This document shows, piece after piece, positions 16,460 through 45,040 of a DNA stretch of 64,000 nt (positions within the stretch are counted from its first letter, which is position 1; each line of letters starts with the position of its first letter). The DNA lies in IMG/VR virus record IMGVR_UViG_3300038968_000070, positions 59,914 to 123,913 of that record; one strand, written 5' to 3'. The notes beneath the pieces were generated by a model. It saw only the letters and a list, made by a program, of their open reading frames with translations, was not told where the DNA came from and made no database searches. The translations under genes were made by a program, and so were the position numbers. This DNA comes from a virus (lineage: Duplodnaviria; Caudoviricetes).

Positions 16460-16653
16460 CCGAACGCCAGCGCTTCGCGCTCACGATCGGCGTCATCCTC
16501 GGCGTCACGCTCGTCACCGTCGCAGCGATGACCGCGTGCGCGATCGCGGTCTTCGAGGGTGCGTCGTTCATCTGGCTCGCCGGCGTCCCGAGCGGGGCGC
16601 TCATCGGCGCACTCGCGATCGCGGTCGTCTGGGAGCACTGGCTCGATGGCTAA
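16456..16653 (+). CDS. small two-TM membrane protein
   Basis: Two hydrophobic segments; GGAGG RBS. Confidence 0.6.
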   Translation: MTERQRFALTIGVILGVTLVTVAAMTACAIAVFEGASFIWLAGVPSGALIGALAIAVVWEHWLDG

Positions 16654-16939
16654 GCACTGGCCGATGGTTGCGTACGCGGCGGACCGTTCGCGCCAGACGT
16701 TGCACGGCATGTTCGTGACGGCGTTCGGGTGGCGCTACACCGTCGAGGCCGCCGACTTGGTGCAGGCGATCGTCGGGTCCGGGCTCGCCAAAGCGGTGAG
16801 TGGTGTCACGATCTCGCCGTACGATCTTCACTACAAACCGTGCTTCGAGAGCGCCGAAGACGAGCGGACGTTCGGCAACATCTGGAACGCGGCGGTCGAC
16901 GAACACCGGCGCAGGCGGGCAACGCGTGACGGTGCGTGA
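16646..16939 (+). CDS. family 1 paralog (C-terminal N..AA..E..RR module)
   Basis: FGNIWNAAVDEHRRR. Confidence 0.7.
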   Translation: MAKHWPMVAYAADRSRQTLHGMFVTAFGWRYTVEAADLVQAIVGSGLAKAVSGVTISPYDLHYKPCFESAEDERTFGNIWNAAVDEHRRRRATRDGA

Positions 16940-17213
16940 TATCCCGGTTCTCGCGGAGCGGTACATGCCGCAGGTCTACGCGTACCTCTACCGGAACTAC
17001 AATGTGGCGGCGCCGTCGTTCGCGTGGCTTCAGAGCGTATCGTTCCCTCACGGATGGGACGAGCGTACGGAGGACGTCTACGAGACGGTGAAGACGCTAT
17101 GGTGGAGCGGCTCCGCGAACAGCATGGCAGAGCTGCGCGCCGACGAAGAGCTACTCACGAACGTCTGGAACGCCGCCGTCGAGGAGTACGCACGGCGACA
17201 CGGAGAACTGTGA
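16926..17213 (+). CDS. family 1 paralog
   Basis: LTNVWNAAVEEYARR. Confidence 0.7.
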   Translation: MTVRDIPVLAERYMPQVYAYLYRNYNVAAPSFAWLQSVSFPHGWDERTEDVYETVKTLWWSGSANSMAELRADEELLTNVWNAAVEEYARRHGEL

Positions 17214-17530
17214 CAACGCCCCGCGACGCGCGAAGCAACACGCAGCGTGTGCGTGACAGCCGACGCTGGCCAGAGATCGACCGCGTACTCCACGCCGGCA
17301 CGATCACCTCGAAGATCCGCTACGCGTTCGGCGTCAGCACACGGAACGCCGTAGACTTCGCCGACCTCTACGACGTGATCATGCACGCCTACCGATCGCT
17401 CCGCATCGACCTGCTCTGGCACGGGGCGGCGCCACCGCCGCCCCCGTCAGAGAACGCCGAAGCGTTCGCCAACATCTGGAACGCCGCCCTCGACGAGTAC
17501 GATCGACGCAAGGCTGCCCGCCGTGGTTAG
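17210..17530 (+). CDS. family 1 paralog
   Basis: DSRRWP; FANIWNAALDEYDRR. Confidence 0.7.
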   Translation: MTTPRDARSNTQRVRDSRRWPEIDRVLHAGTITSKIRYAFGVSTRNAVDFADLYDVIMHAYRSLRIDLLWHGAAPPPPPSENAEAFANIWNAALDEYDRRKAARRG

Positions 17531-17906
17531 AGTCTGGTACCCCTACGAGCACGCGATGCCGTTCTGCGGCGATGTCCGCCGCTGGCCGGACGTCGCCTAC
17601 GAATGCGAGCGCCGGTTCGCGCATTGCAGCCCGCGCAAGATCATCGAATTCATCGGCGGCTTGCCCATGGAGCGCGACCGTGATCTCCTCGACACGTTGA
17701 CGTTGGTCTGGCACAACAGCGACGACAGCTGGAGCGGCGATCAACAGTCCAACCCGTACGATGACGCCAATGCGCCCTGCGAGCACGAGCAACTGATCGC
17801 CAACACGCTCGACGCCATCGTCGACGAGATCGACCGTCGCCTCGGGCGTCGGCCGACGTACCGACCGCCGCCGAACGGCGGGGCGCAGGTTTCGTACGGC
17901 GATTGA
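17523..17906 (+). CDS. family 1 paralog
   Basis: GDVRRWPD; DRDLLDTL; ANTLDAIVDEIDRR. Confidence 0.7.
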   Translation: MVRVWYPYEHAMPFCGDVRRWPDVAYECERRFAHCSPRKIIEFIGGLPMERDRDLLDTLTLVWHNSDDSWSGDQQSNPYDDANAPCEHEQLIANTLDAIVDEIDRRLGRRPTYRPPPNGGAQVSYGD

Positions 17907-17949
17907 CGACCATCGACGCCGCCCGGGACGCCGTGATACGCTCCTAGCC

Positions 17950-18462
17950 ATGCTGGCCACCTCCGTTCACCTCCTCGGGCGTCGTCGCCGCCGCGGGTTC
18001 CTCGGCGCCATCTCGCTTCCGAACTTCAGCGTCGCGGGGCGCCCGATGCTCACGCAGGGCGGCGGCATCGAGCAGCCTCCGATCGGCACCGACCCGCTGG
18101 CGCCGGGCTACACCACGCCAACGTTCCCCGGCAGCGGCGGGCTCCCGCCGCCTCCGCGGCCGCCCAAGGTGAAGGGCTACTGGTTCAGCGCCACGGTCGG
18201 ACCGACGTCGCCCGTCAACACGGGCCCGGCGGGCGACGGCACCGGGGGCACGCAACCGCCGCCGCCGCAGACGCCCGCGGGCACCGTGGTGAACGAGATC
18301 GCGCCGCCGTCGTACGTCCCGCCACCCATCACCACGACGCCCGACGCGACCGTTCCGACGGCCGACGTCGTCGTCCCGGGTACGCCGCGGAAGCCCTGGT
18401 GGCCGTGGGCGATCGCCGGCGCGGTCGTGGCAGCGGTCGGCGCGTACGCGATCACGCGCTAG
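17950..18462 (+). CDS. Pro-rich protein with C-terminal TM anchor (putative virion membrane protein)
   Basis: LLGRRRRRGFLGA N-terminus; KPWWPWAIAGAVVAAVGAYAITR. Confidence 0.7.
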   Translation: MLATSVHLLGRRRRRGFLGAISLPNFSVAGRPMLTQGGGIEQPPIGTDPLAPGYTTPTFPGSGGLPPPPRPPKVKGYWFSATVGPTSPVNTGPAGDGTGGTQPPPPQTPAGTVVNEIAPPSYVPPPITTTPDATVPTADVVVPGTPRKPWWPWAIAGAVVAAVGAYAITR

Positions 18463-19500: not shown

Positions 19501-19502
19501 GG

Positions 19503-19865: not shown

Positions 19866-19877
19866 CGTTTTGTTTCC

Positions 19878-22827: not shown

Positions 22828-22835
22828 GGAATGCA

Positions 22836-23870
22836 GTGAGTAAACCGCATGTCCTCAAATTCGGGATTCAGACCGGATACTTCACGAAGCTTACAACTCT
22901 GGCACGCAACGCGGAGCTGTCGGTCCCTGAGTACGTCTACAACCTCGTGGTCATGGCGGTGAACGGTTTCACCCCGGGCGCTGGCGGCGTCAATGCGACA
23001 CCGGCGCTGGCGGCGGCGAAGACCGTCGCCAAGCTCGACGACATCCCCGTCGACGTCGAACGCGGGACGATCCCCGGCAGCTACGCCGGCGTGAAGCAAC
23101 GCGACGGTGCGTGGGAGGCGAAGGCCGGGCGCACCGTGCTCGGGCGCTTCAGTTCCCCCGAGGTCGCCGCGCTCGCGCGCTACTTCGCGATCGTCGGCTA
23201 CAAGGCCGGGCGCGGCGCCTTCTACGACGACGTCAGCATGAACCCCGACTACGCCGCCAAGCAGCTGCCGAAGGACGTCGAGCGGTTCGCGCCGCTGTCG
23301 GCGACGCAAGCGGTTGCAGGCGCAGCGGCACGCGGCGAGGCGCAGATCCCGGCGTCAGCGGTGCCGGCGGGGTTGCTCGTCGAGCCTGACCCGACGGCCG
23401 TCGCGACGTACCTCGGACCCCCGATCGCGTCTCAGCCTTCGGCGCGTCGGGCCAAGGCTCGCGGCGACGCCGCACCCCCGAGCCCCGCGGGCGATTCCCG
23501 GGTCGGCGGCGACGTTCTTCAAGGAGTCGACCCCCCGGCGGGACCAGAAACCGCCGGAGGGTCAAGGGAGACGTCGGCGGACGGGGGGCGGACGCCTTCT
23601 ACCTCGATTCGAGACGCTACCGAAGGGGGCGGCGGCGGTCAAGCGGATCTTTGCCCGATCTGCGACGGCGAGATGAACCCCGGCATCGCACGCAAGCACC
23701 CGCGCTACTGCCTCTTGTGCAGCGACGACTACGAGACGTGGCTTGGGCTCCCCGACGATCAAGACGGCGCCGACGACGTCGTCCTCGCGTTCACGTCGAC
23801 GAACGTGAAGCTCGCGCCGCAGGAGCGTGCGTTCATGGCGTACTTGATGCGCACGCGGGGCTTGCTGTGA
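22836..23870 (+). CDS. putative regulator: RHH-like + AP2-like + Zn finger
   Basis: KFGIQTGYFTKLTTLARNAELSVPEYV; YAGVKQRDGAWEA..LGRFSSPEVAA; CPIC..CLLC. Confidence 0.65.
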   Translation: MSKPHVLKFGIQTGYFTKLTTLARNAELSVPEYVYNLVVMAVNGFTPGAGGVNATPALAAAKTVAKLDDIPVDVERGTIPGSYAGVKQRDGAWEAKAGRTVLGRFSSPEVAALARYFAIVGYKAGRGAFYDDVSMNPDYAAKQLPKDVERFAPLSATQAVAGAAARGEAQIPASAVPAGLLVEPDPTAVATYLGPPIASQPSARRAKARGDAAPPSPAGDSRVGGDVLQGVDPPAGPETAGGSRETSADGGRTPSTSIRDATEGGGGGQADLCPICDGEMNPGIARKHPRYCLLCSDDYETWLGLPDDQDGADDVVLAFTSTNVKLAPQERAFMAYLMRTRGLL

Positions 23871-24394
23871 TGTGGACGGATCTTTGGCCGGATGCTGATC
23901 CTGATGTCGATGAGACCTTCGCCGACGGGTGGACGATCGAATGGGCCGCGCCGGCGTTCAACGGGCGATGGGGTGATTTGATCGGAGACCGAGCTGACCT
24001 CGCGTCGCCTCTGGCCGTCAAGGTGACGCGAGGCGACGGTGTGACGTTCACGCTCTCACCGTCGGCACATAGCCACTTGATGCGGCTATCCGACATCGTC
24101 GATCTCGCTGGGCGCGCGTTCGCGCGCGCCGACAACGACCACACGACGTATGGCAGCACCATCTTCTACCGCTGGTCTAACCGGCTCATCGCGGTGTTCC
24201 TGAACGCGCTCGTGCGCTTCCCCGACGACCTCCGTCAAACCGTCCTTCACGTCGCCGACGTAGAAAGCAGTGATCCTCCGTGCCAAGTCCTGTGGAACGT
24301 GTTCAAAGCCGCCGTCGCCGAGGAGCGTCGAAGGCGAAGGGCGAGTGGTCTACGTACGTCGAAGTCCGCGACGGCGATTTCTACCTCAGTCTGA
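23870..24394 (+). CDS. family 1 paralog
   Basis: PDDLRQTV; LWNVFKAAVAEERRR. Confidence 0.7.
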   Translation: MWTDLWPDADPDVDETFADGWTIEWAAPAFNGRWGDLIGDRADLASPLAVKVTRGDGVTFTLSPSAHSHLMRLSDIVDLAGRAFARADNDHTTYGSTIFYRWSNRLIAVFLNALVRFPDDLRQTVLHVADVESSDPPCQVLWNVFKAAVAEERRRRRASGLRTSKSATAISTSV

Positions 24395-24672
24395 AACGAC
24401 CGCGGAAAACGCCGATCGCCTTGGTCATTCCAAGCCATCTCGCGATGGTGATCGGCTCGATGGTGCCGAAGTCGAAGACGTGGGAGCGACGTCTGAGCGA
24501 CCTCGCTTCCGTGCTCACGTCTAGGTCCGAGCACGTCGCGACGGTGGCGAAACTCGTCGAAGCAGCACGGACGCCAGAAGACGTCGACGTCTTGTTCAAC
24601 GTCGTCAAGGCGGCGATCGCGAGTGATCGCCGCGCGGCGAGGGTGAAGGCACGTAAGGCGCGTAAGCGATGA
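24280..24672 (+). CDS. family 1 paralog (start uncertain)
   Basis: ARTPED; LFNVVKAAIASDRR. Confidence 0.6.
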   Translation: MPSPVERVQSRRRRGASKAKGEWSTYVEVRDGDFYLSLKRPRKTPIALVIPSHLAMVIGSMVPKSKTWERRLSDLASVLTSRSEHVATVAKLVEAARTPEDVDVLFNVVKAAIASDRRAARVKARKARKR

Positions 24673-25043
24673 GCGCACGCTGGCGTGTCGCGCCCGCGCC
24701 GTTGATGACGGCGCTCGCCGCGCGATTTCACATCTATCCGCCGACGTCGTCGTTGGGCCGGCGACAATGCGTGTGCGCGCGTTGGCCTGCGCAGACGGTT
24801 GTGCTGCACAAGCACGCAACGATCAACGTGCACACCGGTCAGGCGTTGCTCCAACAGCAGGCGCACGCGGTGTTCCACGTACTCGCGTTGTCGTCGGCGT
24901 GGCGCGAAACGTTCTTGCACTTGATCGCCGAGGCCCGTACGCCGGAGGACCTGGCCGCCGCCGTGAACTACGCCGGTGCGGCGTTCGAGGAGGATCGCCG
25001 GGGCTCGCTTAGCTCCACCCTCTCAAAACGTGCCGTTCCGTAG
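24669..25043 (+). CDS. family 1 paralog
   Basis: ARTPED; AVNYAGAAFEEDRR. Confidence 0.6.
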   Translation: MSARWRVAPAPLMTALAARFHIYPPTSSLGRRQCVCARWPAQTVVLHKHATINVHTGQALLQQQAHAVFHVLALSSAWRETFLHLIAEARTPEDLAAAVNYAGAAFEEDRRGSLSSTLSKRAVP

Positions 25044-27310: not shown

Positions 27311-27720
27311 GGCTTCGATTCCTTGTTGATGGCGAGGACGTTGTCCATCGGCGGCGGTAGCGGGAGGTCCGAGGTCGTCGTCGTGTAGCCAACCTCGACG
27401 TTCTGCACGTACGGCGCGCCTGACAGCTCCGTCAACGCCCGCTCCATTTTCGCCGCGATGACCGCCGTCCAGACGATCGACATCGCGCCGGCGATCAGGA
27501 TCGCCCACGGTGACGTCGACCCGAGGAACGGGACGTCGAACGCGTAGCCGATGGCGGCGGTGCCGAGGCCGTACCAGAAGCCGCTGCACGCCGCGCAGGA
27601 CATGAGCGCATCGAGCCGCGCCGGGTAGCGCGACCATAGGAAGGACGTGATCTGGGCGCGCGCCCCGAGGTAGAAAAGCGCCGTCGTGATCAGGGGCAGA
27701 ACGAAGATGCTGTCGATCAT
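27307..27720 (-). CDS. DUF1360-like membrane protein
   Basis: Three TM segments; LMSCAACSGFW. Confidence 0.6.
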   Translation of the reverse strand: MIDSIFVLPLITTALFYLGARAQITSFLWSRYPARLDALMSCAACSGFWYGLGTAAIGYAFDVPFLGSTSPWAILIAGAMSIVWTAVIAAKMERALTELSGAPYVQNVEVGYTTTTSDLPLPPPMDNVLAINKESKP

Positions 27721-28064
27721 GGTGACGTCTCTTGTATCACGTCGGTCCGACGGGCAACGTTCCGTCGGTCTTGCTCGTCGATCGCGGCGTCGCTGACGTT
27801 GATCAGCGCGTCTTCGACCTCGATTTCATAGCCGGTGAAGTCGGGTGCAGAGATCCACGCGTCGAGCAGGGCTCTGACTGTAGCGACGAGGTCGTCGTCG
27901 GTGATCTTCGCGTGCTCCCGGAGGATGTACATCCGCGTGGCGTCGGAATCACCGGCGCAGTGTCGCCGCGCCTCTTCGGTGACTGAATATCTCCACCAGT
28001 TCGGCCATCGTCGCGGGTCAGCAATCGTCTGGTGGTCGTCGACGTTACGCCATCGGCGGTTCAT
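27717..28064 (-). CDS. family 1 paralog
   Basis: DPRRWP; DDDLVATV; INVSDAAIDEQDRR. Confidence 0.75.
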   Translation of the reverse strand: MNRRWRNVDDHQTIADPRRWPNWWRYSVTEEARRHCAGDSDATRMYILREHAKITDDDLVATVRALLDAWISAPDFTGYEIEVEDALINVSDAAIDEQDRRNVARRTDVIQETSP

Positions 28065-28405
28065 CGCTGCGCGTCCCTTCGATCTTGCTCGTCGATCGCG
28101 GCGTCGAGTGCGTTGATGACGACGGCCTCGATTTCGAGGTCAGCGTGGCCGGGCGTGGTCAACCACTCTTCGTAGAGCCGTGCAACCGTGGTGCGGAGGT
28201 CCGGGTCGATGATTCCCACACAGTCGAGCAACGTCGTCACCATCGCCGTCACGTGTGCCTCGCGGCTGTCGCGAAGCCTGACGGCGTCGGCTGTGGTGAA
28301 CGCGACCAGTGGCCATCTTCGCGGGTCCCCGTTGCTGGCGACGAGCGCGCTACTGCGCGGTTCGCCCGCGTAGTAACGAACGCTTCGAGGGTGCGCTCCG
28401 ATCAT
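28061..28405 (-). CDS. family 1 paralog
   Basis: GDPRRWP; DPDLRTTV; INALDAAIDEQDRR. Confidence 0.75.
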   Translation of the reverse strand: MIGAHPRSVRYYAGEPRSSALVASNGDPRRWPLVAFTTADAVRLRDSREAHVTAMVTTLLDCVGIIDPDLRTTVARLYEEWLTTPGHADLEIEAVVINALDAAIDEQDRRDAQR

Positions 28406-28420
28406 TCCTATACGAGAATT

Positions 28421-29008
28421 CTAGTTCCCGTCGCCGACTCGGTCAACCATCTCTTCGGGCAGAAGATCCGGCTTGGCGCCCTCGCGCGCGACGCTCGCGC
28501 CCGTCGTCGCACTCCAACGATCGCACAGGTACTTGTCGCTGACGTACGTCCCGTACTTCGGCGACGACCGCTCGTTGCAGAGCGCCTGTTGCCCGAGGAT
28601 CGGGTCGCCGTGGTTGATCGATGCCTCGAACCGGTCCAGGTGCTCCGTCGCCTTCTCGATGCCGTCGATCTTGTGGAACAAGCTCGCGGCGGCCTCGTCC
28701 TTCGGGCGGTGACAGCGCTTGTACTTCTGCCCGGAGCCGCACGGACAGCGTTCGTTGACCGGCGTGTTCTTGAAGCGCGCAACCATCGTCGGGTCGACGA
28801 CGGCGCCTTCGAGGAGGAGCCGTTTACCCTCGGCGATGCGCGCTTCGTGCACCGGGCGTTCGGTGGCGCGCCAGTGCTGAAGGCTCGCTTCCTTCGAGGC
28901 CATACCACGACAGTTCCAACAGCCCTGGCGACGCTCGAAGGTGCGATCGGCGAGGGGGAGCGAGATTTTGTTCGACACGGCGGGCACGGTAGCACACGGG
29001 TGCGTCAT
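28421..29008 (-). CDS. SEC-C motif protein
   Basis: NERCPCGSGQKYKRCH. Confidence 0.75.
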   Translation of the reverse strand: MTHPCATVPAVSNKISLPLADRTFERRQGCWNCRGMASKEASLQHWRATERPVHEARIAEGKRLLLEGAVVDPTMVARFKNTPVNERCPCGSGQKYKRCHRPKDEAAASLFHKIDGIEKATEHLDRFEASINHGDPILGQQALCNERSSPKYGTYVSDKYLCDRWSATTGASVAREGAKPDLLPEEMVDRVGDGN

Positions 29009-29146: not shown

Positions 29147-29175
29147 TTGATCGGTCACACGATCCAGCGTACGGT
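29147..29175 (+). promoter_or_regulatory. GATC-dyad promoter
   Basis: TTGATC-17 bp-TACGGT; contains GATCGGTCACACGATC; ATG at 29185. Confidence 0.75.
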
Positions 29176-31691: not shown

Positions 31692-32066
31692 ATGACCTTG
31701 GACTGGCAGCCGAACGAGCAGTACACCGTGTTCTACAAGGAAGCCGACGTCGGCATCTTGTTCATGGTCGAGCGCCTCGTCGGCAAGAAGCTCTACGCCG
31801 CCGTCGCTGTCGAGGGTGCGCACCCGCGTGGGATCTCGCTCGCGCAGTTCATCGAGACCGCCGAGAAGTTCCTCCTCGGCGACAAGTTCCGGTCGGTCGC
31901 GAGTGCGCAGGCCGCGTGCGCCAAGTACCTACGCGCCGCGCAGCGCGAGATCGCGCGGCGTCGCCGCGCCGGTGCGGTCGACGTGCTCGACATCAACGCG
32001 ACGGGTCGCGTGGTTCATCTTCCGCGGTGGTCGTGGGAGATGACGTCGGACGTTCCGCGGGCGTAG
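31692..32066 (+). CDS. hypothetical protein
   Basis: TGA-TACCCT 8 nt before ATG. Confidence 0.6.
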   Translation: MTLDWQPNEQYTVFYKEADVGILFMVERLVGKKLYAAVAVEGAHPRGISLAQFIETAEKFLLGDKFRSVASAQAACAKYLRAAQREIARRRRAGAVDVLDINATGRVVHLPRWSWEMTSDVPRA

Positions 32067-32418
32067 CGCGCGCAGCGTCTCGGCGGCGTTGTTCGGCGGC
32101 CGCGGCTTCAGCGACGTTGACGACGGTGTCGTAGTCCTCGCCGTTACTGGCACGACAAGCGCGCCCTGCGTTGATGACGGTCTCGCAAAGGTCTTCGTCG
32201 GTGATCTTCAGCGTGTTGCAGCGGCTCACCGCGAGCGCGATGCGCGTCGAGCACCACTCTTCGATTTCAGCGAAGTCGACGTCGCCGATCGGCTTGTCGT
32301 TGTCGGCGCGGAACCACTCGGCGACGCCGGCTTGGAACGCACCCTCTTCGGTAGTCTCGATGGATAGCTCCATCTTGAGCACCGCGAAGGGCTGGCCGTC
32401 TTTGTCGACGCCGATCAC
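31993..32418 (-). CDS. family 1 paralog
   Basis: DEDLCETV; VNVAEAAAAEQRRR. Confidence 0.65.
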   Translation of the reverse strand: MIGVDKDGQPFAVLKMELSIETTEEGAFQAGVAEWFRADNDKPIGDVDFAEIEEWCSTRIALAVSRCNTLKITDEDLCETVINAGRACRASNGEDYDTVVNVAEAAAAEQRRRDAARATPAERPTSSPTTTAEDEPRDPSR

Positions 32419-32811: not shown

Positions 32812-33210
32812 TCACAACGGTGGGGCGTCTCGGCGTGAGATCCGCGTGACCGGCGTGGGGGTGATCCCCCTGCGGCGGTCTTGCTCGTCGATGGCGGCGT
32901 CGGTCACGTTGGCGTAGGCCCAACACTCCTCGTCGGTGGCGCCGCAGTCAGCGGTGAAGGTCGTCGAGAAAGCGGTCGTGACGACGGCGACGAGGTCGGG
33001 GTCGGTGATGCCCATCGCAGCCACGGTCGCCTTCGCCGTCGCGCGGTTGATGGGGTTGACGTTGGGGTACCGCCGCGCGTCGCTTGTTAGCCACGGCGCG
33101 GCGCTGCCTTGTCGACGGATCTCGCGTTCGACGTCGTCGTCCGCGTGGAATCGCTGTCGCACGGTCACGTCGATCGGGTTGAAGTAGCCCAGGCTGCCTA
33201 GCTGCGTCAT
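32812..33210 (-). CDS. family 1 paralog
   Basis: DARRYP; DPDLVAVV; ANVTDAAIDEQDRR. Confidence 0.75.
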   Translation of the reverse strand: MTQLGSLGYFNPIDVTVRQRFHADDDVEREIRRQGSAAPWLTSDARRYPNVNPINRATAKATVAAMGITDPDLVAVVTTAFSTTFTADCGATDEECWAYANVTDAAIDEQDRRRGITPTPVTRISRRDAPPL

Positions 33211-33470
33211 CGCTCTCTCGTCACCGGGCGTGGCGTTCGTCCGAATCGGCGATCTTGTTCGTCGATCGCGGCGTCGAAGACGTGGATCCAAGTCCATAGC
33301 GACTCGGGTTCAAAGGGGTCATCAACGTTGCGTGCACGTGTTACGGCTGTGCGTAGGTCATCGTCGAGCCACGCAAGCGCTGCGTTCCAGCCGCCGTCGC
33401 CGCAGTCAGGGAAGCGTCGCGGGTCGCCGGTGTACGCACAGAACGGATACTCAGGCCACGCGTGGTTCAT
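33207..33470 (-). CDS. family 1 paralog
   Basis: GDPRRFPDCG; DDDLRTAV; HVFDAAIDEQDRR. Confidence 0.75.
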   Translation of the reverse strand: MNHAWPEYPFCAYTGDPRRFPDCGDGGWNAALAWLDDDLRTAVTRARNVDDPFEPESLWTWIHVFDAAIDEQDRRFGRTPRPVTRER

Positions 33471-33721
33471 CGCTCGCGCACCACCGGCTTCGGCTCCAGC
33501 CCACGCCGCCGGTCCATCTCGTCGATCGCGGCGTCGAAGACGTTGATGAACGCCCAGAGCGCGTCACGTGGCCAGATGCCGCCCCACGACGCGATGACGG
33601 CGCGCCGGAGGTCTGCGTCGAGCCACTCGGTGTAGTCGTAGAGACCGCGGCCGGCGGCGCCGCAATCGGGGTACCGGCGGGGGTCGCCTGTTGGGTGTGG
33701 GAAACCGGCGGCGGTGGTCAT
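33467..33721 (-). CDS. family 1 paralog
   Basis: GDPRRYPDCG; DADLRRAV; INVFDAAIDEMDRR. Confidence 0.75.
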   Translation of the reverse strand: MTTAAGFPHPTGDPRRYPDCGAAGRGLYDYTEWLDADLRRAVIASWGGIWPRDALWAFINVFDAAIDEMDRRRGLEPKPVVRER

Positions 33722-33753
33722 GCGAAAGCTGAACGTCGACCAGACGATGCCGA

Positions 33754-34905
33754 TCACCGTCGATGCCGACGACGACGTCGCGAGCCGCTGATCGACGGTG
33801 TCGGCTCCGCGTCGACACGCGTCTTCTTGCGCCGCGCGTCGCGACGCTCCGTGGCGTAGCGGAACACGTTGATGAGCGCCGTCGACGCCACCGCGCCCGC
33901 GCTGAGGATGCCGAGCATGTACATGCGGTCCTGGTGCATCTTCAGCTCGTGCACCGCCGCGGTCGCGGGGTCCATCGGCGGCGCGCCGTCGGCGGTCGCG
34001 GTCTCGGCGCCCAGGACGTTCGCCATCGGGCCGGCGATGCCGGGGCGTCGATACGCAGGCGCAGCGCCCTTGCCCCACGGCGTCATGAACGCCGGGTCGT
34101 TCGGCGTCGGGCGACCGTGCGGCGGCGCCCACGGCGCCGGTGAGTAGGCGCCCTCCTTCATGGGGATCCACTGCGACATGACCGGCGTGTAGCCGTACTG
34201 CGTTGACAGCTGCATGTCCGTCGGGACGGCGCCCATGCCCGGGGTCGGGCAACCGACGCCGGCGGTGCGGCACGTGAACCGCGCGAGGCGCCCCAGCACG
34301 CCGTTGGGCTCGTAGGCCGACGTCCGGTCCTGCCGGTAGTTCGGTCCGCGCTCGGGGCGATCGGTGCAGTACGCCTGCGGGCCGAAGTCCTTGGTCGCCG
34401 CGACCATCTCGAAGCTCGGGTACGGGCTCCGGTCGCCGTAGGGGGCGAGGACGATGCCGAGGGCGCCGAGGGCGCTGTTGACTTCCTGGCGTGACGCGAC
34501 TCGGAAGTTCTCACGGAAGACGTGCCCGCGTCGCGTCGCCCCGCTCAAAGTGCCCTTGAGCGCCTCGATGGTGCCGTAGGGGTCGAGCACGCGCTTGACG
34601 CGCGTGGCGGCGGCGGTCGTGAACGCCTCGGCGGAGGCCGCCCGGCGCGTGAACGACGCCGTGGGCGCCGGCGACGCCTCGGCCGCCGGCCCCGTCTGGA
34701 TCATCGTCGACGCGCGCTGGACGCCGTCGACGAACTTGCCCGGTGGGAACAGGTAGTACCGCTGTTGCGCGGCACGCGCCGGGTTCTCACAGCCGACGAC
34801 GCCGTTGCCGGCGGCCGTGGGGCCGGTCAAGAGCACCGTCGTCGTGCCAGGGGCGACGCCGACGGCGGTGGGCTGACCAGGGGTCGACTCGATGGCGGTC
34901 TGCAC
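33754..34905 (-). CDS. putative virion protein with TM and poly-Arg tail
   Basis: VGVAPGTTT; GMGA, VLGA; TM; SISGSRRRRRHRR. Confidence 0.75.
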   Translation of the reverse strand: MQTAIESTPGQPTAVGVAPGTTTVLLTGPTAAGNGVVGCENPARAAQQRYYLFPPGKFVDGVQRASTMIQTGPAAEASPAPTASFTRRAASAEAFTTAAATRVKRVLDPYGTIEALKGTLSGATRRGHVFRENFRVASRQEVNSALGALGIVLAPYGDRSPYPSFEMVAATKDFGPQAYCTDRPERGPNYRQDRTSAYEPNGVLGRLARFTCRTAGVGCPTPGMGAVPTDMQLSTQYGYTPVMSQWIPMKEGAYSPAPWAPPHGRPTPNDPAFMTPWGKGAAPAYRRPGIAGPMANVLGAETATADGAPPMDPATAAVHELKMHQDRMYMLGILSAGAVASTALINVFRYATERRDARRKKTRVDAEPTPSISGSRRRRRHRR

Positions 34906-34909: not shown

Positions 34910-35371
34910 TCAGCGTACCACAGCGGGCCCGGGGCCCGCTACGGCGCCGCGTAGGCGGCGGTCCTCCGCCACGACCGCGTCGAGGATGTTGTTGAACGCC
35001 GCGAACGACGCCGGGTCGCGCCATGCAGTCGTATTGAAGACACGCGCGAGCGTCCGTGTGTACTCGGTCGTGAGCCCGAGGTCGACGACGAGGAGCGGTG
35101 CGAACGACAAGCGCCCGAGCTTGCGGTGGTCGCCGCGCTCGCGGCGGTACTCGAACATGTACCAGTTGAGGCGCGCGTAGGGGTCGAGATCGTCGAGCGG
35201 GTCGTGGAACAACCCGTCGCCGAGGCCGTAGCCGACCGCCCGTGTGACGTCGCGTTTGCGCTCCGTCGCCGCGTGTCGCGCTTCGAGCAGCGTTCTTGCA
35301 GAACCCGCGCGCCAGCACGCCCACCGAGCGTTCAACGCGCGGATCAAGTTATCGCTGACGTGGTCATGCAC
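34910..35371 (-). CDS. family 1 paralog
   Basis: DPYARL; FNNILDAVVAEDRR. Confidence 0.65.
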   Translation of the reverse strand: MHDHVSDNLIRALNARWACWRAGSARTLLEARHAATERKRDVTRAVGYGLGDGLFHDPLDDLDPYARLNWYMFEYRRERGDHRKLGRLSFAPLLVVDLGLTTEYTRTLARVFNTTAWRDPASFAAFNNILDAVVAEDRRLRGAVAGPGPAVVR

Positions 35372-35870
35372 TGCGTGGCTCCTGCCGCCGGCGCGCCGCC
35401 GTCTCGACCGCCGCTGCGATGATGTTGTCGAGCGCGGCACGGTCCTCTTGCCTCGACCAGTCGGTCGTCATGTATGCCTCTCGAACGGCGTCGGTCAGGT
35501 CAGCCCAGCACCGTAGCGTCAGGTCAGCCCAGCACCGTAGCGCAAGATCGTCGACGAGGAATCCGCTCATGATCCGGCGCGCCGGGCGCTCGGTGCTGAG
35601 GAACATGTAGTCCCACAGCCGTGAGTACGGATCGCGGGCGCCCCCGCCGGTCAACGCGTGTTCGACGGCGCGCGTTGGGTCGGTCACCCGCGCGTCGTGC
35701 AGCGCATTCCAGATCGCCCAGCGATGTCGCAGTGCTGTGCGTAGCGTGGGCACATCGGCGATCGTCACGAGCGTATCATATAAGAATACGCGGACGAACG
35801 CAAACCTGGCGCGCCAGCGGGCGGGGACCGTGAACGTCGTCGTGCCGGGTGCGGTGCCGACTACCGGCAC
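35364..35870 (-). CDS. family 1 paralog with capsid-like N-terminal peptide
   Basis: VGTAPGTTTFT; DPYSRL; LDNIIAAAVETAARR. Confidence 0.65.
   Translation of the reverse strand: MPVVGTAPGTTTFTVPARWRARFAFVRVFLYDTLVTIADVPTLRTALRHRWAIWNALHDARVTDPTRAVEHALTGGGARDPYSRLWDYMFLSTERPARRIMSGFLVDDLALRCWADLTLRCWADLTDAVREAYMTTDWSRQEDRAALDNIIAAAVETAARRRQEPRSA
35494..35541. repeat. perfect 24-bp tandem duplication GTCAGGTCAGCCCAGCACCGTAGC x2
   Basis: Read directly; in frame (LRCWADLT x2). Confidence 0.9.
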
Positions 35871-36194: not shown

Positions 36195-36226
36195 GTGGGC
36201 ATGTTATCGCGCCGTTGCCCGATGGT

Positions 36227-37575: not shown

Positions 37576-38301
37576 TCAGCGCAGCACCGCCCGCGCGCCG
37601 TAGAACGCCGCGCCGCCGAGCGCGAGTGCGCCCGCGCCCATCGCCACCATGCCCAGGGTCGTCATCCACCAGCGGCCGGTCGCGCTCATGAACGTGCTGC
37701 GCGAGACCTCGGTGCCCGACGCCGGGCGGCTCTCCGACGGCGCGATCTCGACGTAGTCCTTGTACTCGCCGGCGAGCGTACCCTGCGGCACCGCGACGCG
37801 GTAGACGCGCTTCCAGCCGTCGTAGAACCAGATCTTCGTCGGGGCGAGCGGCCCGCCGCCGCCGTCGGGCGTCGTCATCGACGGCGGCGCCCAGACGGCG
37901 CCGGGCGTCTGCGCGTAGTCGCTCACGAGCGCCCAGCTCGCCTTGCCACCACCGGGCGTCGGCGGCTGCGGAACGCCGCCACCGGTGGCGACGTTGTGAA
38001 TGCCGATCGCGATGACCGCCTTGGCGATCGAGCTGGCGTGCTTGCGGATGAGCGCGAACAGCTTGTCGGCCTGCGTCTGGTCGTACTGCGCGAATGCCCA
38101 GATCACCGGCGCGAGCGTCGAGACCTCCGAGGGGATGCCCGGCGTGCGCGGCAGCATCGCGACGACCGCGCCGGCGGTCTTGAGCCCGACCTTGCCGTCG
38201 ATCGGGCCCGGGTTCGCGGCGGTGTAGCCCGTGGTCTGGGCGTACGTCGTGAGCACCTTCTGAAGCTCTTCGACGCTACTATCGTAGGGCTGCGCGGCCA
38301 T
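37576..38301 (-). CDS. peptidoglycan-binding-like protein with C-terminal TM
   Basis: VEELQKVL..PGPIDGKVGLKT; terminal TM. Confidence 0.7.
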   Translation of the reverse strand: MAAQPYDSSVEELQKVLTTYAQTTGYTAANPGPIDGKVGLKTAGAVVAMLPRTPGIPSEVSTLAPVIWAFAQYDQTQADKLFALIRKHASSIAKAVIAIGIHNVATGGGVPQPPTPGGGKASWALVSDYAQTPGAVWAPPSMTTPDGGGGPLAPTKIWFYDGWKRVYRVAVPQGTLAGEYKDYVEIAPSESRPASGTEVSRSTFMSATGRWWMTTLGMVAMGAGALALGGAAFYGARAVLR

Positions 38302-38313
38302 GGACGTTTCCTT

Positions 38314-39636: not shown

Positions 39637-39643
39637 GTGGGTC

Positions 39644-39672
39644 ATCCTACTAGTGATCGCGTGACCGATCCA
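39644..39672 (-). promoter_or_regulatory. GATC-dyad promoter
   Basis: TGGATC-17 bp-TAGGAT, ATG 7 nt later. Confidence 0.75.
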
Positions 39673-39698
39673 GGCGGTTCGTGTTAGCGTTCAGGGAG

Positions 39699-40436
39699 AT
39701 GCAGCGCTCCATCTTCCGTTCGCCGTTGTTCTGGGGAGGCGTGGGCATTCTCGCGGCTGGCACCGCCGTCGCGTTCCACCGCAAGCGGGAAGCGTTGCTC
39801 GGACGTGAGAAGGCGGGGCCGGAGCCGTTCTTGGTGCAGAGGAACAACGCGACGATCCCCCCACCGACCCAGGTGACGAAGGCAGGCGGGTACACGGCGC
39901 GGCGGTATACGACCGACCGTTTCTCGATTGACCAACGTCTCCGCTTGATCCAGGAGAACGTGTTCACCGGCATTCAGGACGGACGCATCCGTCATCTCGC
40001 TGGGCAGCTGACGAAGCATTGCGGGCGTGACGACGGCCCGTGTGAGGTGCAAGCGGTGTTCGACGCGGTGCGGAAGCACGTGCGTTACAGTGGAGATGTC
40101 GGCCCGGTGATCGATCCGAAGACGGGCGTCGTCGACGGTGTGGACCTCTATGCGTCACCTCATCGCGTGTGGACGTCGCAGATCGGCGACTGTGACGACC
40201 ACGTCGCGTTGATCGCATCGCTCTTGGCGATCATGGGGCACGAGGTCAGGCTGCGTGTGACGGCGCCATCACGCTTTGGTGAATTCGCCCACATTTACGC
40301 GGCGGTGGGGACCCCGAAGATCGGGCCGAGGAAGTTTCGTGCGGTCGACACGACGTTGCCCTGGCGGAACGCGAACGTCGGTAGCGAGGCGAAGTACGGT
40401 CGCGCGCGGGACTACGTCGTCGAGGTCCCGGCTTAG
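39699..40436 (+). CDS. transglutaminase-like cysteine protease with N-terminal TM
   Basis: VRYSGD, GDCDDH, HIY, VDTT (Cys-His-Asp triad). Confidence 0.85.
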   Translation: MQRSIFRSPLFWGGVGILAAGTAVAFHRKREALLGREKAGPEPFLVQRNNATIPPPTQVTKAGGYTARRYTTDRFSIDQRLRLIQENVFTGIQDGRIRHLAGQLTKHCGRDDGPCEVQAVFDAVRKHVRYSGDVGPVIDPKTGVVDGVDLYASPHRVWTSQIGDCDDHVALIASLLAIMGHEVRLRVTAPSRFGEFAHIYAAVGTPKIGPRKFRAVDTTLPWRNANVGSEAKYGRARDYVVEVPA

Positions 40437-41038
40437 GGTTTGAAGCGGCGTTCACCGCGCAGGTACGCTACAGCTGCGAGTAGCAGCTCCGGGTCGTCGT
40501 TGAAGCGACCGATGCCGGTGTTGCAGTTGTGACAGAGCAAGCCGCGCACCTCGCCGGTTTTATGGTCGTGGTCGAGGGCGATGAGCGTCACACCGAGCCT
40601 GTTCGTTCGTGTCTCGGGCCGACGGCAGATTGCGCAGCGGTCGTCATGCGCCTTGACGAGCCGTGCATGGTCTTCGAGCGTCATCTTGAAGTCACGTAGG
40701 CGCCGCTTCAACGTCGCCGTCCGTTGGCGTACGCGGAAGGTGACGTCTTCGCGCCGCCGTTTCTTACGGGCTTTCGAGACGCGCGCTGCGTCTTTAGGAT
40801 GGCTGCGGTGCCACTCGGCTTGATTGAAATGTCGACAACGCGTGCACCAGCCGTCGACGATTTTGAAACGGCCGGTGCGCTTACACTTCGTACACGTGCA
40901 TCGTGGGCGAATCGTTGGGCTGCGGCCTGCGTACCATTCACGGTAGTACGCCCGCCAGCACGCGCGACACGGTTGCGGTCGCCCGGCGTAGAACGGTCCG
41001 GTGCCGCCGCACTTCTTACAGACGCGCGTTCCACTCAC
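40433..41038 (-). CDS. endonuclease VII-like nuclease
   Basis: CAIC..ALDHDHKTGEVRGLLCHNCNTGIG..D. Confidence 0.9.
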   Translation of the reverse strand: MSGTRVCKKCGGTGPFYAGRPQPCRACWRAYYREWYAGRSPTIRPRCTCTKCKRTGRFKIVDGWCTRCRHFNQAEWHRSHPKDAARVSKARKKRRREDVTFRVRQRTATLKRRLRDFKMTLEDHARLVKAHDDRCAICRRPETRTNRLGVTLIALDHDHKTGEVRGLLCHNCNTGIGRFNDDPELLLAAVAYLRGERRFKP

Positions 41039-41090
41039 AACCGCCTGAGTTTACGTTGACCCTCCGACAGATCCTCCGTACCTTGGTCAT

Positions 41091-41435
41091 ATGGCTCGTC
41101 GTCGAAAGCGTCTCGGTGCTACCAAGCGCGTGCACCACCACATGGCTGAAGATCACATGACGAAGGCACGCAGCGCGATCAACAAGGCCGTCGCTGCGCT
41201 TCGACGTGGGAGCTGCCACGGCGCGCACTTGCACCTCGCGGAAGCGCACGAGGAGATCGGCGCGAGCCACGCGCACGGGCGCAGCCATGGCCAGACCGCA
41301 TGGCTCCCGCAGCGTGCGCTCATGGACGTCAACGGCAAGTTCAACGACCTCTGCATCGTCCCCGACAAGGTCGACGTCGGTGCGAACTGGTCGCCCGCGC
41401 TCGCGCGAGCCCGTCGGAAGCGGCGCCGGCGCTGA
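41091..41435 (+). CDS. small basic protein (GxC family, Arg tail)
   Basis: RRGSCHGA; ARRKRRRR. Confidence 0.7.
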   Translation: MARRRKRLGATKRVHHHMAEDHMTKARSAINKAVAALRRGSCHGAHLHLAEAHEEIGASHAHGRSHGQTAWLPQRALMDVNGKFNDLCIVPDKVDVGANWSPALARARRKRRRR

Positions 41436-41439
41436 CGCC

Positions 41440-42042
41440 ATGCGGGGCGTCCGTCCATATACGCCCGCCGCGTTCCGCGAGCGTCTCGACGAAGCGGCCG
41501 AGGACCCTGCACGCTTCCGTGCGACCGCAGAGCGGCTTCAAGCCGTTGCCGATGCCCTTGCACAGCAAGGCCGTGGCTGGAACGGCACGCGGAAGGTCTT
41601 CATCGCCGACGTCGCCAAGGCGCTGGGGACGAAGCCCGAGCGCATCGCCGGGCCGCTCTTGATCGCCAACAACAAGGGTTGGGTCGAGCTGGTGCGCGCC
41701 GATCTCGTCGGCGCGATGGACACGGACAAGGTCGTCGCCAGCGAGGTCGAGTCGCCAAGCGGCGTCGCGTCGTATCACTTCGTGGTCGCGAAGAGCGGTG
41801 CGTTGCGTGGTACCGTGAGGGGAACCGCGATGAAGTGCGTCAAGGTCAAGGCACCGCTGTCGACGTTCGACAAGCGAAGCATCCGCACGGTCACGCACAA
41901 GAGCGGCGCGCGCGTCCTCGTCGGTTGTCCGAAGGGGAAGTGGATGCCGCGGAAGCAGCGCTGTCGCGTCGCGATGCGCGCGTACGAGACGATCACGCCC
42001 GGCCGCTGCAAGCGCGGGTCGGGCGGGAAGACGAAACGATGA
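41440..42042 (+). CDS. two-domain basic protein
   Basis: Domains separated by GALRG; VGCPKGKW. Confidence 0.65.
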   Translation: MRGVRPYTPAAFRERLDEAAEDPARFRATAERLQAVADALAQQGRGWNGTRKVFIADVAKALGTKPERIAGPLLIANNKGWVELVRADLVGAMDTDKVVASEVESPSGVASYHFVVAKSGALRGTVRGTAMKCVKVKAPLSTFDKRSIRTVTHKSGARVLVGCPKGKWMPRKQRCRVAMRAYETITPGRCKRGSGGKTKR

Positions 42043-42407
42043 AGTGCTCCTGCGGCCACATCCTCCCCGACCCGGTGATCGCCTGCGACGGCGCCGCGAC
42101 GCCGCCGCTCGTCTGCGCGCGCTGCGCCGCCGTGCAGACGTTCACCACGCCCGGCGACGACATCCTCTTGACGCAGTTCGTGACGGCGCCCGACGCTCAG
42201 AACATGGCCAACAACGTCCAGAAGCCCTTCGGCGATCGCTCTCCCTGCCCGGTCTGCGACGAGATGATGCCGTCGCCGGTGATCAACGACGGCAAGCCGA
42301 CGACGACGTCTTGCGGCAACTGCGGGACGCGGCGTACGATTCAGGTGTCGGATCCTGGTGACGAGGCGTCGAAGCCCGTACCGCCCGACGGCAAGCTCTG
42401 GAACTGA
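42039..42407 (+). CDS. duplicated Zn-ribbon protein
   Basis: Two C..C..PxPVI..CxxC units. Confidence 0.65.
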   Translation: MKCSCGHILPDPVIACDGAATPPLVCARCAAVQTFTTPGDDILLTQFVTAPDAQNMANNVQKPFGDRSPCPVCDEMMPSPVINDGKPTTTSCGNCGTRRTIQVSDPGDEASKPVPPDGKLWN

Positions 42408-42883
42408 TGACCCCCCTCGCCGATCTCCGCCGCGCCGTGCTCGACCTGGACAACGTCCCGGCCGGCACGCCCGTCGTGCTCCAAGCGAGCTACGGCGAAC
42501 GGCCGAGCCTCACCTACGACGCGCCGAACGGCGTCGTGCGGTTGAACATCGGCGGCGGTCAGCCACAGGGGCGGCCGACGATGGGTCAGCTGCGCGCGTG
42601 GCTCGGGCTGCCGCCCGCCGGCGGCAGCGGCGGCAACCTCGCCGGCTTCTGGGACAGCGCGCGGCTGCGCGAGCCGTCGACGTGGCGTGGCATCGCGACG
42701 TTCGCGAGCGCGGCCGTCAGCGGCTACCACGGTGTGAAGCGCAACGGCGGGAGCGTCTTCTGGGGTGCGTGGTGGTTCGCGTGGGGCGCGGCGTTGCCGG
42801 GCCTCGCGCCGCTCGTCGCCGTGGCGCAGGGCTACGGCGACTGCGCCAACAATTGCCGGCGTGCGCCGACGGAGAAGCGGTGA
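42407..42883 (+). CDS. membrane protein (YHGxKR family)
   Basis: GYHGVKRNGGSVFWG..AQG. Confidence 0.7.
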   Translation: MTPLADLRRAVLDLDNVPAGTPVVLQASYGERPSLTYDAPNGVVRLNIGGGQPQGRPTMGQLRAWLGLPPAGGSGGNLAGFWDSARLREPSTWRGIATFASAAVSGYHGVKRNGGSVFWGAWWFAWGAALPGLAPLVAVAQGYGDCANNCRRAPTEKR

Positions 42884-42887
42884 TCTG

Positions 42888-43154
42888 ATGGCGAAGTCGA
42901 AGCTCAACCCTCGTGCGTATCGCCTGTCGTTCGGCGGGACGCGCGCCAAGAAGTACGCACCGACGAAGCGCGAGGCGTACAAGGATGCGCGCTACTGGAT
43001 CGCCTTCGGTCAGATGAAGGTCTGCGTCGAGAAGCGGCTTCCGTCGGGCGATTACAAGCAGGTCGGCTGTGTCCGTCGGAAGAAAACGCGACCGTTCTCG
43101 ATTCGGTCCCGCGCGACAGACGCGATCGAACGCAACATGAACGCGCGCTGGTGA
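42888..43154 (+). CDS. small basic protein
   Basis: MAKSKLNP start; K/R-rich. Confidence 0.6.
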   Translation: MAKSKLNPRAYRLSFGGTRAKKYAPTKREAYKDARYWIAFGQMKVCVEKRLPSGDYKQVGCVRRKKTRPFSIRSRATDAIERNMNARW

Positions 43155-43167
43155 TACACTCACCGTC

Positions 43168-43434
43168 ATGGCCAAGCTCAACCCCGACGCCTCCGCCGCC
43201 ATCTCCGCCGCTCGCGCCGGCCGCTGCCGCGACGCGATGAAGCACCTCTACGACGCCTCGCCGCACGTGCAAGGGCGCGGCTGCGACAGCATGACGTCGG
43301 CGGAAGCCAACGCCTATCGGCAAGCCAACCTCGTCGTCGCGGGGCTGTGCACCGTGCAGACGAAGCCGAAGCACTACAAGTCGACCGGCTTCGACGGCGC
43401 GCGCCGCCGGCGGCGCCGCACGCGCCGCCGGTGA
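43168..43434 (+). CDS. small basic protein (GxC family, Arg tail)
   Basis: RAGRCRDA; FDGARRRRRR. Confidence 0.7.
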   Translation: MAKLNPDASAAISAARAGRCRDAMKHLYDASPHVQGRGCDSMTSAEANAYRQANLVVAGLCTVQTKPKHYKSTGFDGARRRRRRTRRR

Positions 43435-43470
43435 CACGCCGGGCGCGTCGGTGATACGCTCACCGTCACC

Positions 43471-43725
43471 ATGAACCTCGGCTACCACACCTGGAACCAG
43501 GAAACCCGCCTCGCCGGCCTCGGCTCGCCCGTCGGCACTGCGTGGTCGCTCCTCAGCCTCGCGTCGTTCGCCGCCAGCGCCTACCACGGCAGCAAGCGGC
43601 ACGGCGGCAGCATCGGCTACGGCATCCTCTGGGGCGTCCTCGGCGGCGTGTTCCCGGTGCTGACGCCGGCGATCGCGGCGGGCCAGGGCTTCGCGCAGTG
43701 CAAGTACAACTGCCGGGGGCGGTGA
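43471..43725 (+). CDS. membrane protein (YHGxKR family)
   Basis: LAGLG; AYHGSKRHGGSIGYG..GQG. Confidence 0.7.
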   Translation: MNLGYHTWNQETRLAGLGSPVGTAWSLLSLASFAASAYHGSKRHGGSIGYGILWGVLGGVFPVLTPAIAAGQGFAQCKYNCRGR

Positions 43726-43732
43726 TCACGTC

Positions 43733-44044
43733 ATGAAGACCGAGTGCCGGCTCCCGGCGTACTCCGACGATCCGCTCACGCTCACCGGCTGCGCGACCGC
43801 GAAGGGCGTCACGCTCTGCGTCGGCGATCGCGTGCATCGTAAGCTGAAGGGCTGGACGCACCGTCAGGGTGAGGTCATCGCGCTCGCGATGGGGCGGGAC
43901 AACAACGGTCGTCCGAAGCAAGCCGCGCGCGTTTGCTTCGACACCGACGAGCCCGGCGACCTCGCCTACTCGTACTTGTTCGAGGAGCTGGCGCCGGTCA
44001 AGAAGCGCGCGTTGAAGGGCGCGCGTAGGCGGCGCCGTCGGTGA
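43733..44044 (+). CDS. small SH3-like protein with Arg tail
   Basis: VGDRV..GEV..VCFD; LKGARRRRRR. Confidence 0.65.
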   Translation: MKTECRLPAYSDDPLTLTGCATAKGVTLCVGDRVHRKLKGWTHRQGEVIALAMGRDNNGRPKQAARVCFDTDEPGDLAYSYLFEELAPVKKRALKGARRRRRR

Positions 44045-44511
44045 CGATCTCCCCCGAAGAGCTTGCCTGGCGGCGTGACTTCAGCGCCGACCGTAGCGCG
44101 AGTGACCTCGTCCGCGAGATGTCACGGCTGCGCAGCAAGCAGCCGCGGCCGCTTCTCAAGCTCTACCGGAACCCGACGCCCGAGCAGCGCGCGGCCTGGG
44201 ACGCCGTCAACAAGCAGTACAACCGGATGATGAGTCACTTGCGCAAGGTGCACAAGATCGCGCTCGCGCGCGACAACGCGCGCTTTCGTAGCGGTGGCGT
44301 CGGGCGTACGCGTCGCCGCGAGTTGATCCCCGGTGGCCTCGCTCCGCGCGGGCGGTGTCCGCGCGACGTTCTCAAGAGCGAGCTGCGCAAGGGCATCAAG
44401 GTCGAGATGGAGCACACGCGCTCGCGCCGCGTCGCACGCGAGATCGCCTGCGACCATCTCACTGAGGATCGACGCTACTACACGAATCTGGCGCGGATCC
44501 ATCGCGAGTGA
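44041..44511 (+). CDS. DUF5661-like protein
   Basis: LRKGIKVEMEHT..AREIACDHLTE..YY. Confidence 0.7.
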   Translation: MTISPEELAWRRDFSADRSASDLVREMSRLRSKQPRPLLKLYRNPTPEQRAAWDAVNKQYNRMMSHLRKVHKIALARDNARFRSGGVGRTRRRELIPGGLAPRGRCPRDVLKSELRKGIKVEMEHTRSRRVAREIACDHLTEDRRYYTNLARIHRE

Positions 44512-45040
44512 CGTCCCGTCGCTGTTGCTCCGCCCGCGCCGCCGTCACGACGTTCATGAACGCGTCGTAGTCCTCACCGGGCTCCCACAACCGTTGCGTC
44601 GAGACCGCAGCGACGGCGACGGTGTCTTGAAGATCGCGGTCACGGATGCGCCACTGACCGCACGCGCGCTTGGCGACGTAGAGGTGTTGCAGCTGTTCGT
44701 CGGTGACGTTCACGTCGTTCTCCCGGGTGATGATGCCGATGACGCGCGCTGCGCCCGTCCACGTCGTGAACCCGCCGGAGACTTCGTACGCGCGCTTGAC
44801 GCGAACGTCACGCAGCTGCGTGGCGCGGAGCCAGAAGCGAATCGGGCGGGAGCCGATCGATAGCCCGTAGACCTCGACCCGATCGTTGTCGGCGAGCTGT
44901 GTGAGGTTGGTGATGATGACGCGGGCGCCGTGGCGTAGCTTGCTTACGCCCGGCTCAGCGACGTTCGCGACGATCTGCCAGGGCAGGTCGTAGTCACGCA
45001 CCACGACGGATCTTCCACTCGCGCGGACAACCCTGTCCAC
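44459..45040 (-). CDS. family 1 paralog
   Basis: DRDLQDTV; FMNVVTAARAEQQRR. Confidence 0.65.
   Translation of the reverse strand: MDRVVRASGRSVVVRDYDLPWQIVANVAEPGVSKLRHGARVIITNLTQLADNDRVEVYGLSIGSRPIRFWLRATQLRDVRVKRAYEVSGGFTTWTGAARVIGIITRENDVNVTDEQLQHLYVAKRACGQWRIRDRDLQDTVAVAAVSTQRLWEPGEDYDAFMNVVTAARAEQQRRDVTRDGSAPDSCSSVDPQ

Follow-up and report, generated by a model that had tools for sequence, protein, structure and literature searches.

A multicopy family of small, predicted all-helical proteins in a group of uncultured high-GC phages

Twenty-one genes of one phage encode a common C-terminal module

We analyzed a 64,000-nt stretch of DNA (the window) comprising bases 59,914-123,913 of the 123,913-bp IMG/VR record IMGVR_UViG_3300038968_000070, which derives from an uncultured phage (Duplodnaviria, Caudoviricetes) with a GC content of 63-70%. 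An earlier note had proposed that 16 open reading frames (ORFs) between 16646 and 45040 share a C-terminal module; coordinates given here are window positions unless marked "genome". All 16 ORFs were found where the note had placed them (its + strand numbers are start codons and its - strand numbers are left ends, i.e., stop codons), and all of them aligned over a 44-column core in a module alignment built from the last 80 residues of the translated ORFs. In the module, a variable loop joins a D-x-D-L-x-x-x-V helix to a last helix that follows the pattern N-[VI]-x-x-A-A-x-x-E-x-x-R-R. The D-x-D-L element is present in strict form in about ten of the 16 proteins, as previously counted, and as Asp-Leu or a close variant in 12.

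The 44-column profile was searched against 2,160 six-frame ORFs from the whole genome. The 16 ORFs scored 42-59 bits, and five further members outside the window scored 21.8-40 bits, giving a total of 21. The next-best ORF reached 6.3 bits, and no sequence in five shuffled versions of the ORF set scored above 9.2 bits. In leave-one-out profiles each of the 16 proteins was recovered at 14.9-44.4 bits, the weakest being 24669 (15.1 bits) and 35364 (14.9 bits), while reversed decoys did not exceed 9.6 bits. The family is thus significant against shuffled controls. A second profile, built from 92 sequences, detected no additional member in this genome. The 21 genes account for about one in ten of ~206 crude gene calls and are scattered over eight clusters on both strands.

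Four + strand genes open the series in the window: a 97-residue protein with a degenerate H-W-P at its N-terminus (16646..16939; leave-one-out score 29.5 bits; ratio of nonsynonymous to synonymous substitution rates (dN/dS) against its orthologue 0.26), a 95-residue protein (16926..17213; 82 residues from the alternative ATG at 16965), and two proteins of a class that carries an N-terminal D-x-R-R-[WFY]-P motif (RRWP class), with 106 residues (17210..17530; dN/dS 0.25-0.37) and 127 residues (17523..17906; dN/dS ≤0.04). Further along the same strand lie a 174-residue protein with an unrelated N-terminal part of 116 residues (23870..24394; dN/dS 0.38), a nearly module-only protein of ~75 residues with a very basic tail (24445..24672; dN/dS 0.13), and a 124-residue protein with the most diverged module (24669..25043; dN/dS 0.29).

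The remaining members in the window are encoded on the - strand. Two RRWP-class proteins are neighbors, one of 115 residues (27717..28064) that overlaps the genes on either side by 4 nt and one of 114 residues (28061..28405). They are followed by a protein of ~126 residues with an uncertain start (31993..32373; dN/dS 0.62 at low divergence), the 3' end of which overlaps a convergent gene at 31692-32066, and by three more RRWP-class proteins of 132 residues (32812..33210; dN/dS 0.41), 87 residues (33207..33470) and 96 residues (33467..33757, or 84 residues from ATG 33721; orthologue 98% identical). A 153-residue protein (34910..35371; dN/dS 0.50) has an N-terminal part related to that of its neighbor (BLASTP E 2e-5), a protein of ~168 residues with an uncertain start (35364..35870; dN/dS 0.18) in which ~9 residues are tandemly duplicated immediately before the D-L helix. 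The last member, at 44459..45004, joins a beta-rich N-terminal part to the module in 181 residues. The five members outside the window occupy the genome stop-to-stop frames 22950-23624 (+), 44505-44975 (-), 44900-45412 (-), 47376-47924 (+) and 47890-48540 (-).

Family members are protein-coding genes under purifying selection

In every member, third-position GC climbs to 0.8-1.0 in the frame of the module. The same profiles revealed that several of the starts assigned earlier lie too far upstream. The probable corrected starts are 24445 or 24460 instead of 24280, near 32373 for 31993, 33757 or 33721 for 33467, near 35870 for 35364, and 45004 for 44459. The earlier note had described the members as tandem and often overlapping; overlaps do exist, but with the corrected starts they are start/stop overlaps of 1-14 nt rather than long ones. 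Overlaps of this size within the clusters indicate tightly packed operons and point to co-translation.

Orthologues were taken from close-relative contigs with 90-98% nucleotide identity. Their dN/dS values were 0.0-0.6 with a median near 0.3, compared with ~0.17 for neighboring genes; one near-identical (98%) orthologue pair gave 1.0. There were no premature stops in the family orthologues. These values mark the family members as protein-coding genes on which purifying selection acts in somewhat relaxed form.

The family is multicopy, turns over among close relatives and is confined to one phage group

Copy number differs between close relatives. The 16926 gene is absent from L023 and L024, where a clean 320-bp indel spans 16931 to 17251. 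The 33207 gene is absent from L021 and L022, with a breakpoint inside the 95 nt of module-coding sequence common to 33467 and 33207, which would be the expected product of unequal recombination between tandem paralogues. In L021/L022 the family genes 32812, 34910 and 35364 are only 72-84% identical to those in the window (72% for 32812), compared with 98% in the flanking DNA. The closest paralogue pair within the genome is 54% identical, and for several members a counterpart in a distant phage is closer than any paralogue of the same genome. The duplications are thus old, yet copies are still gained and lost.

A profile search of 1.84 billion representative proteins (E ≤1e-3) returned 76 matches, seven of them from this genome. 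All had 43-214 residues except one of 628 residues (P0031), whose Pfam matches were all weak, below threshold and coiled-coil-like; it was set aside as a likely false positive. Pfam detected no fused known domain in ten longer foreign members. A sister phage of 126.5 kb in IMG/VR carries 6-9 members, and fragments of more distant relatives carry 5-8 each. Phage-like neighbors were present in every contig examined, and several of these contigs share genes with this genome, e.g., those for a GDSL lipase, an alpha/beta hydrolase, an integrase and a SEC-C protein. A scan of 185,579 bacterial and archaeal genomes for the module pattern found none. The family is therefore confined to this phage group and is multicopy there.

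The conserved part is a predicted three-helix unit without a named relative

Consistent with the earlier statement that no named domain is recognizable, Pfam (all 21 members of this genome) and PHROGs v4 (ten of them) gave no match at curated cut-offs, and when 31 members (7 from this genome and 24 foreign) were compared with Pfam, PHROGs and NCBIfam, again no curated cut-off was reached and no family recurred, even at permissive thresholds. One member matched the vWA-MoxR-associated family VMAP-M18 at E 0.099, which we treated as noise, and a single member matched a PHROG head-tail adaptor family at E 0.26. A sequence-profile search of the PDB returned no match at E up to 10. With structure models, Foldseek found nothing significant (best E 2.1 against the PDB and 0.66 against BFVD), an ESM Atlas feature search gave no usable match, and VIA-align of two models against 48,161 chains gave best Z scores of 6.1 and 6.0, within the stated noise for helical models. 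A literature full-text search for the motif strings returned no relevant paper. The protein family is undescribed, although the phenomenon of a large phage devoting many genes to one diverged small-protein family is already familiar.

The 114-residue 28061 member (P0007) was modeled by AlphaFold2 from a 31-sequence alignment with a predicted local distance difference test (pLDDT) score of 83 and a predicted template modeling score (pTM) of 0.73. The model has five helices, and the last three exceed pLDDT 90. The 181-residue 44459 member, with its unrelated N-terminus, was predicted to have the same three C-terminal helices at pLDDT ~90. From these three confident helices in the models of two dissimilar members we conclude that the conserved part is a predicted three-helix unit of ~45-70 residues. 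The hairpin described in the earlier note is present in the models, which add one helix to it.

Across the 92 sequences, the best-conserved positions are D2, D4, L5 and V9 in the first hairpin helix and N31, V32, A35, A36, E39, Q40, R42 and R43 in the last. The conserved residues of the last helix lie on one face with a seven-residue period; this face is hydrophobic to begin with and turns polar (E-Q, R-R) in its second half. The net charge of the module ranges from 0 to -10. In the model we propose, the last two helices of the unit would form an antiparallel hairpin, with the acidic D-x-D-L capping the start of its first helix. Because such a hairpin places the end of its last helix next to where its first begins, we infer from sequence periodicity and topology that D-x-D-L and the E-Q-x-R-R end are side by side and clasp the hairpin shut. 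The invariant Ala-Ala pair would permit close packing of the helices.

An N-terminal motif goes with an acidic stripe on the last helix

The D-x-R-R-[WFY]-P motif is found in ~30 of the 76 matches, including seven members in the window, exactly those counted previously, and an eighth, variant member of this genome (DPTRWP) outside the window. The presence of the motif goes with two acidic residues in the module. Asp occupies module position 38 in 27 of 30 proteins with the motif and in 19 of 55 without it (Fisher P = 7e-7), and position 41 in 28 of 30 and 7 of 55, respectively (Fisher P = 1e-13). This association suggests that the Arg pair of the motif docks on an acidic stripe of the last helix. 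AlphaFold2 predicted the whole of the RRWP-class protein 28061 as one five-helix domain, and the "docking" face of RRWP members may thus be occupied within the molecule. About a third of the members would then probably fold the N-terminal D-x-R-R-W-P back onto the acidic stripe into a compact five-helix domain, and the module in this class, if the fold-back is real, would not be a freely exposed docking hairpin.

The remaining members have different N-terminal pieces or almost none. As the earlier note had observed, N-termini are largely unrelated; BLASTP linked them only through the short RRWP motif and in the pair 34910/35364. Six members have at most 33 residues ahead of the module, and one 72-residue member has nine. 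Since such module-only members exist, the module itself must carry function and cannot be an address tag only. The N-terminal parts of two long members hint at distinct domains. One of these members, encoded outside the window at genome 44900-45292 (-), has a SWIM-like C-x-C...C-x-H pattern with a spacer of 11 residues, and the SWIM zinc finger profile (PF04434) scored it at E 0.12 and 12.4 bits against a cut-off of 19.6. The N-terminal ~100 residues of the 44459 member, for which a single homologue was available, were predicted as beta strands by AlphaFold2 at pLDDT <60; in the Atlas, 6 of 10 structure rows for this part were OB-bearing families, with template modeling scores of 0.55-0.58, obtained with a model whose pLDDT was 0.43. 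Many members end in a basic or Pro-rich tail. Isoelectric points of the whole proteins span 4.3 to 11.2, a range that rules out DNA mimicry as a general reading.

Possible roles of the family

We tentatively favor, without putting its chances as high as even, the reading that these proteins are accessory, non-enzymatic binders of host or phage proteins that form one lineage-specific family. These small, mostly acidic, soluble, predicted all-helical proteins go back to old tandem duplications within a group of uncultured high-GC phages of 125 kb, where copy gain and loss continue. On the favored reading they would be expressed from tightly packed operons as accessory factors for takeover, regulation or counter-defense. 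The conserved unit would serve as a scaffold, perhaps with a common contact site, while surfaces that vary between members, N-terminal additions and C-terminal tails would confer specificity. By analogy, a role in host takeover or anti-defense is plausible. Expanded families under purifying selection with turnover between near-identical strains usually mark the virus-host interface. The 121Q/PBECO4-type jumbo coliphages offer one of the closest parallels. Their tandem arrays likewise consist of many diverged small, often acidic paralogues with a conserved C-terminal part and variable N-termini, have no known function and are restricted to a phage lineage. They differ in having no sequence relation to the present family and in forming one long array, whereas the family described here is spread over eight clusters, on both strands, in a high-GC genome of 124 kb and has a predicted three-helix unit as its conserved part.

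Several observations weigh against this reading. The tree contains only three independent supported contrasts for the link between RRWP and Asp, an underpowered comparison (sign test P = 0.5) in which the link is inseparable from shared ancestry. Rather than clasping the hairpin, the conserved charged residues, acidic and basic, could make up a site for a ligand, a metal or a partner. In Pfam and PHROGs scans, the genes around family members have no known function. Finally, the sigma-70-like promoter match at 28418..28446 (-), which ends 12 nt upstream of the 28061 start codon, is the sole one in 20 kb, where 1.4 are expected by chance, and is weak evidence.

The earlier note had read the family as a modular adaptor arsenal, in which a constant docking hairpin binds one shared phage or host partner and variable N-termini recognize different targets. 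In strict form, the hairpin would be an exposed module docking to one hub (such as a protease, RNA polymerase or a phage machine), to which each N-terminus brings a different target. F-box proteins and SspB-type protease adaptors join a constant docking domain to a variable part in this way, and the present family resembles them in its constant module and differing N-termini. The module is indeed far more conserved than the rest of the proteins, its conserved polar residues lie on a single helix face, and the SWIM-like and OB-like leads in long members fit the proposal. However, six members have no room ahead of the module for a target-recognition domain, RRWP members are predicted as compact single domains in which motif and acidic stripe go together, the 76 matches revealed no fusion to any known domain, and the family has no homology to F-box or SspB-type adaptors, several of its members having no variable domain. 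In its strict form the adaptor arsenal is therefore unlikely. Part of the modular proposal does hold, as long members join the module to other likely binding domains. It is distinctly unlikely that one phage or host hub, such as the portal/neck, the replisome or a protease, is bound by the three-helix unit acting as a true docking domain. If this were true, the 21 genes would make up an adaptor system bringing N-terminal binding domains (zinc finger, OB-like and others) together with module-only competitors to the hub, a bacterial-virus counterpart of F-box-type adaptor families.

An association with the virion, in which the module would direct its carriers, either packaged cargo or accessory neck proteins, to the capsid, portal or neck, is very unlikely; such proteins would be comparable to T4 internal proteins or to cargo borne on a scaffold-like helix-loop-helix. 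In its favor, 15 of the top 50 rows of both whole-PDB structural searches, made with two independent models, were phage neck, adaptor or portal entries, a recurrent weak resemblance to head-to-tail adaptors with the SPP1 gp15/T7 gp11-type helical core, and the 44459 member lies among genes near the tail-fiber region. These matches all have Z ≤6.1, within helical noise, Foldseek found nothing significant, there is no sequence signal, and 21 copies among non-structural genes misfit a neck component; most members lie among non-structural genes of no known function, beside replication genes. The T4-type internal protein locus encodes otherwise unrelated small proteins that carry one capsid-targeting sequence, a cleaved N-terminal peptide of ~10 residues. 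It is similar in combining unrelated small proteins with one short conserved part at a locus that changes fast between related phages. The common part here, in contrast, is C-terminal, folded and 45-70 residues long and has no protease-site pattern.

There is a slim chance that the proteins regulate transcription or nucleic-acid transactions as binders of sigma factor or RNA polymerase or as replisome accessories. The first cluster lies just past the replication genes, many members have basic or Pro-rich tails, the SWIM-like and OB-like leads are of the appropriate kind, and weak Atlas look-alikes to sigma-70 region 2 were seen on a poor model. Against this, the look-alikes are below any meaningful threshold, the module is acidic, and neither a helix-turn-helix nor any other family was matched by the members. 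A small metal-dependent enzyme family, with the several nearly invariant Asp/Glu residues as its active site, is barely credible, given members as short as 70-75 residues, no match to any enzyme family or fold, and loss of the acidic stripe in most non-RRWP members.

The family, from a little-known group of large high-GC phages, provides a defined candidate set for host-takeover or counter-defense functions and a new small helical domain worth naming; for now it is one more instance of a known phenomenon.

Genomic setting

The phage is remote from any isolate, as judged by sequence: a megablast of 8 kb against 50,697 phage records gave zero matches, and polymerases in phage records share no more than 24-29% identity with its family-A DNA polymerase. 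The "direct terminal repeat" of the record is an exact 103-bp overlap of the genome ends (bases 1-103 and 123811-123913), which looks like the assembly overlap of a circular or circularly permuted genome rather than a long terminal repeat.

Recognizable genes in the window are few. The DNA polymerase (PolA, 821-3619, -) is fused to an N-terminal domain of the uracil-DNA-glycosylase superfamily (UDG-like); the others include an SNF2 helicase, a PD-(D/E)XK nuclease, a ThyX-like protein and a tail fiber with an S74 chaperone domain. A comparison of 30 neighboring or structural-region genes with Pfam and PHROGs gave almost no matches, apart from a SEC-C motif, an alpha/beta-hydrolase match that was weak and below cut-off, and an HNH/methyltransferase protein. 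The last of these, at 47986-49632 (+) among the presumed structural genes, combines an HNH endonuclease region (PHROG E 2e-43) with one resembling a DNA methyltransferase in 548 residues. PHROGs gave no match for nine presumed structural proteins (37576-56448), and the whole genome contained no recognizable portal, terminase or capsid protein. The virion module of this phage group is thus unannotatable by current profiles. A 440-residue neighboring protein was likewise without a relative in the bacterial and archaeal genomes scanned by pattern, which thus gave no clue to the host.

The SEC-C zinc motif (Pfam E 1e-8) belongs to a 188-residue protein at 28421-28987 (-), directly upstream of the 28061/27717 family pair. 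The 699-residue protein at 29185 had been put forward as a possible partner; it is Ala/Glu/Arg-rich, low-complexity and coiled-coil-like and has no family match, and we rejected it as an obvious partner or polymerase. In the sister phage, a SEC-C protein likewise adjoins a 710-residue protein. Just upstream of the 44459 member, a 63-residue ORF at 45200-45391 (-) resembles an excisionase/MerR-type helix-turn-helix protein, as judged by eye from its translation. The crude gene call at 35861-36202 (-) has two stops and a dN/dS of 0.84 in close relative L021 and may not be a gene in that frame. Outside the window, genome 20082-23238 (+) (L027:82-3238) encodes a protein with a weak sub-cut-off match to the AAA_5 (MoxR/dynein-type) ATPases followed by a DUF2201 metallopeptidase/VWA-like protein, and a 72-residue module-only family member lies 167 bp downstream of this pair.

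A dyad, GATCG-N6-CGATC, occurs in 11 copies in 6985-60473, where 0.58 are expected; sites include 29149-29164, 39655-39670, 45484-45499, 46393-46408, 47052-47067, 49678-49693 and 60458-60473. Eight of the 11 have a GTGA[CG] core, and these eight lie 10-87 nt upstream of + strand genes, including in two divergent regions that also head family operons.

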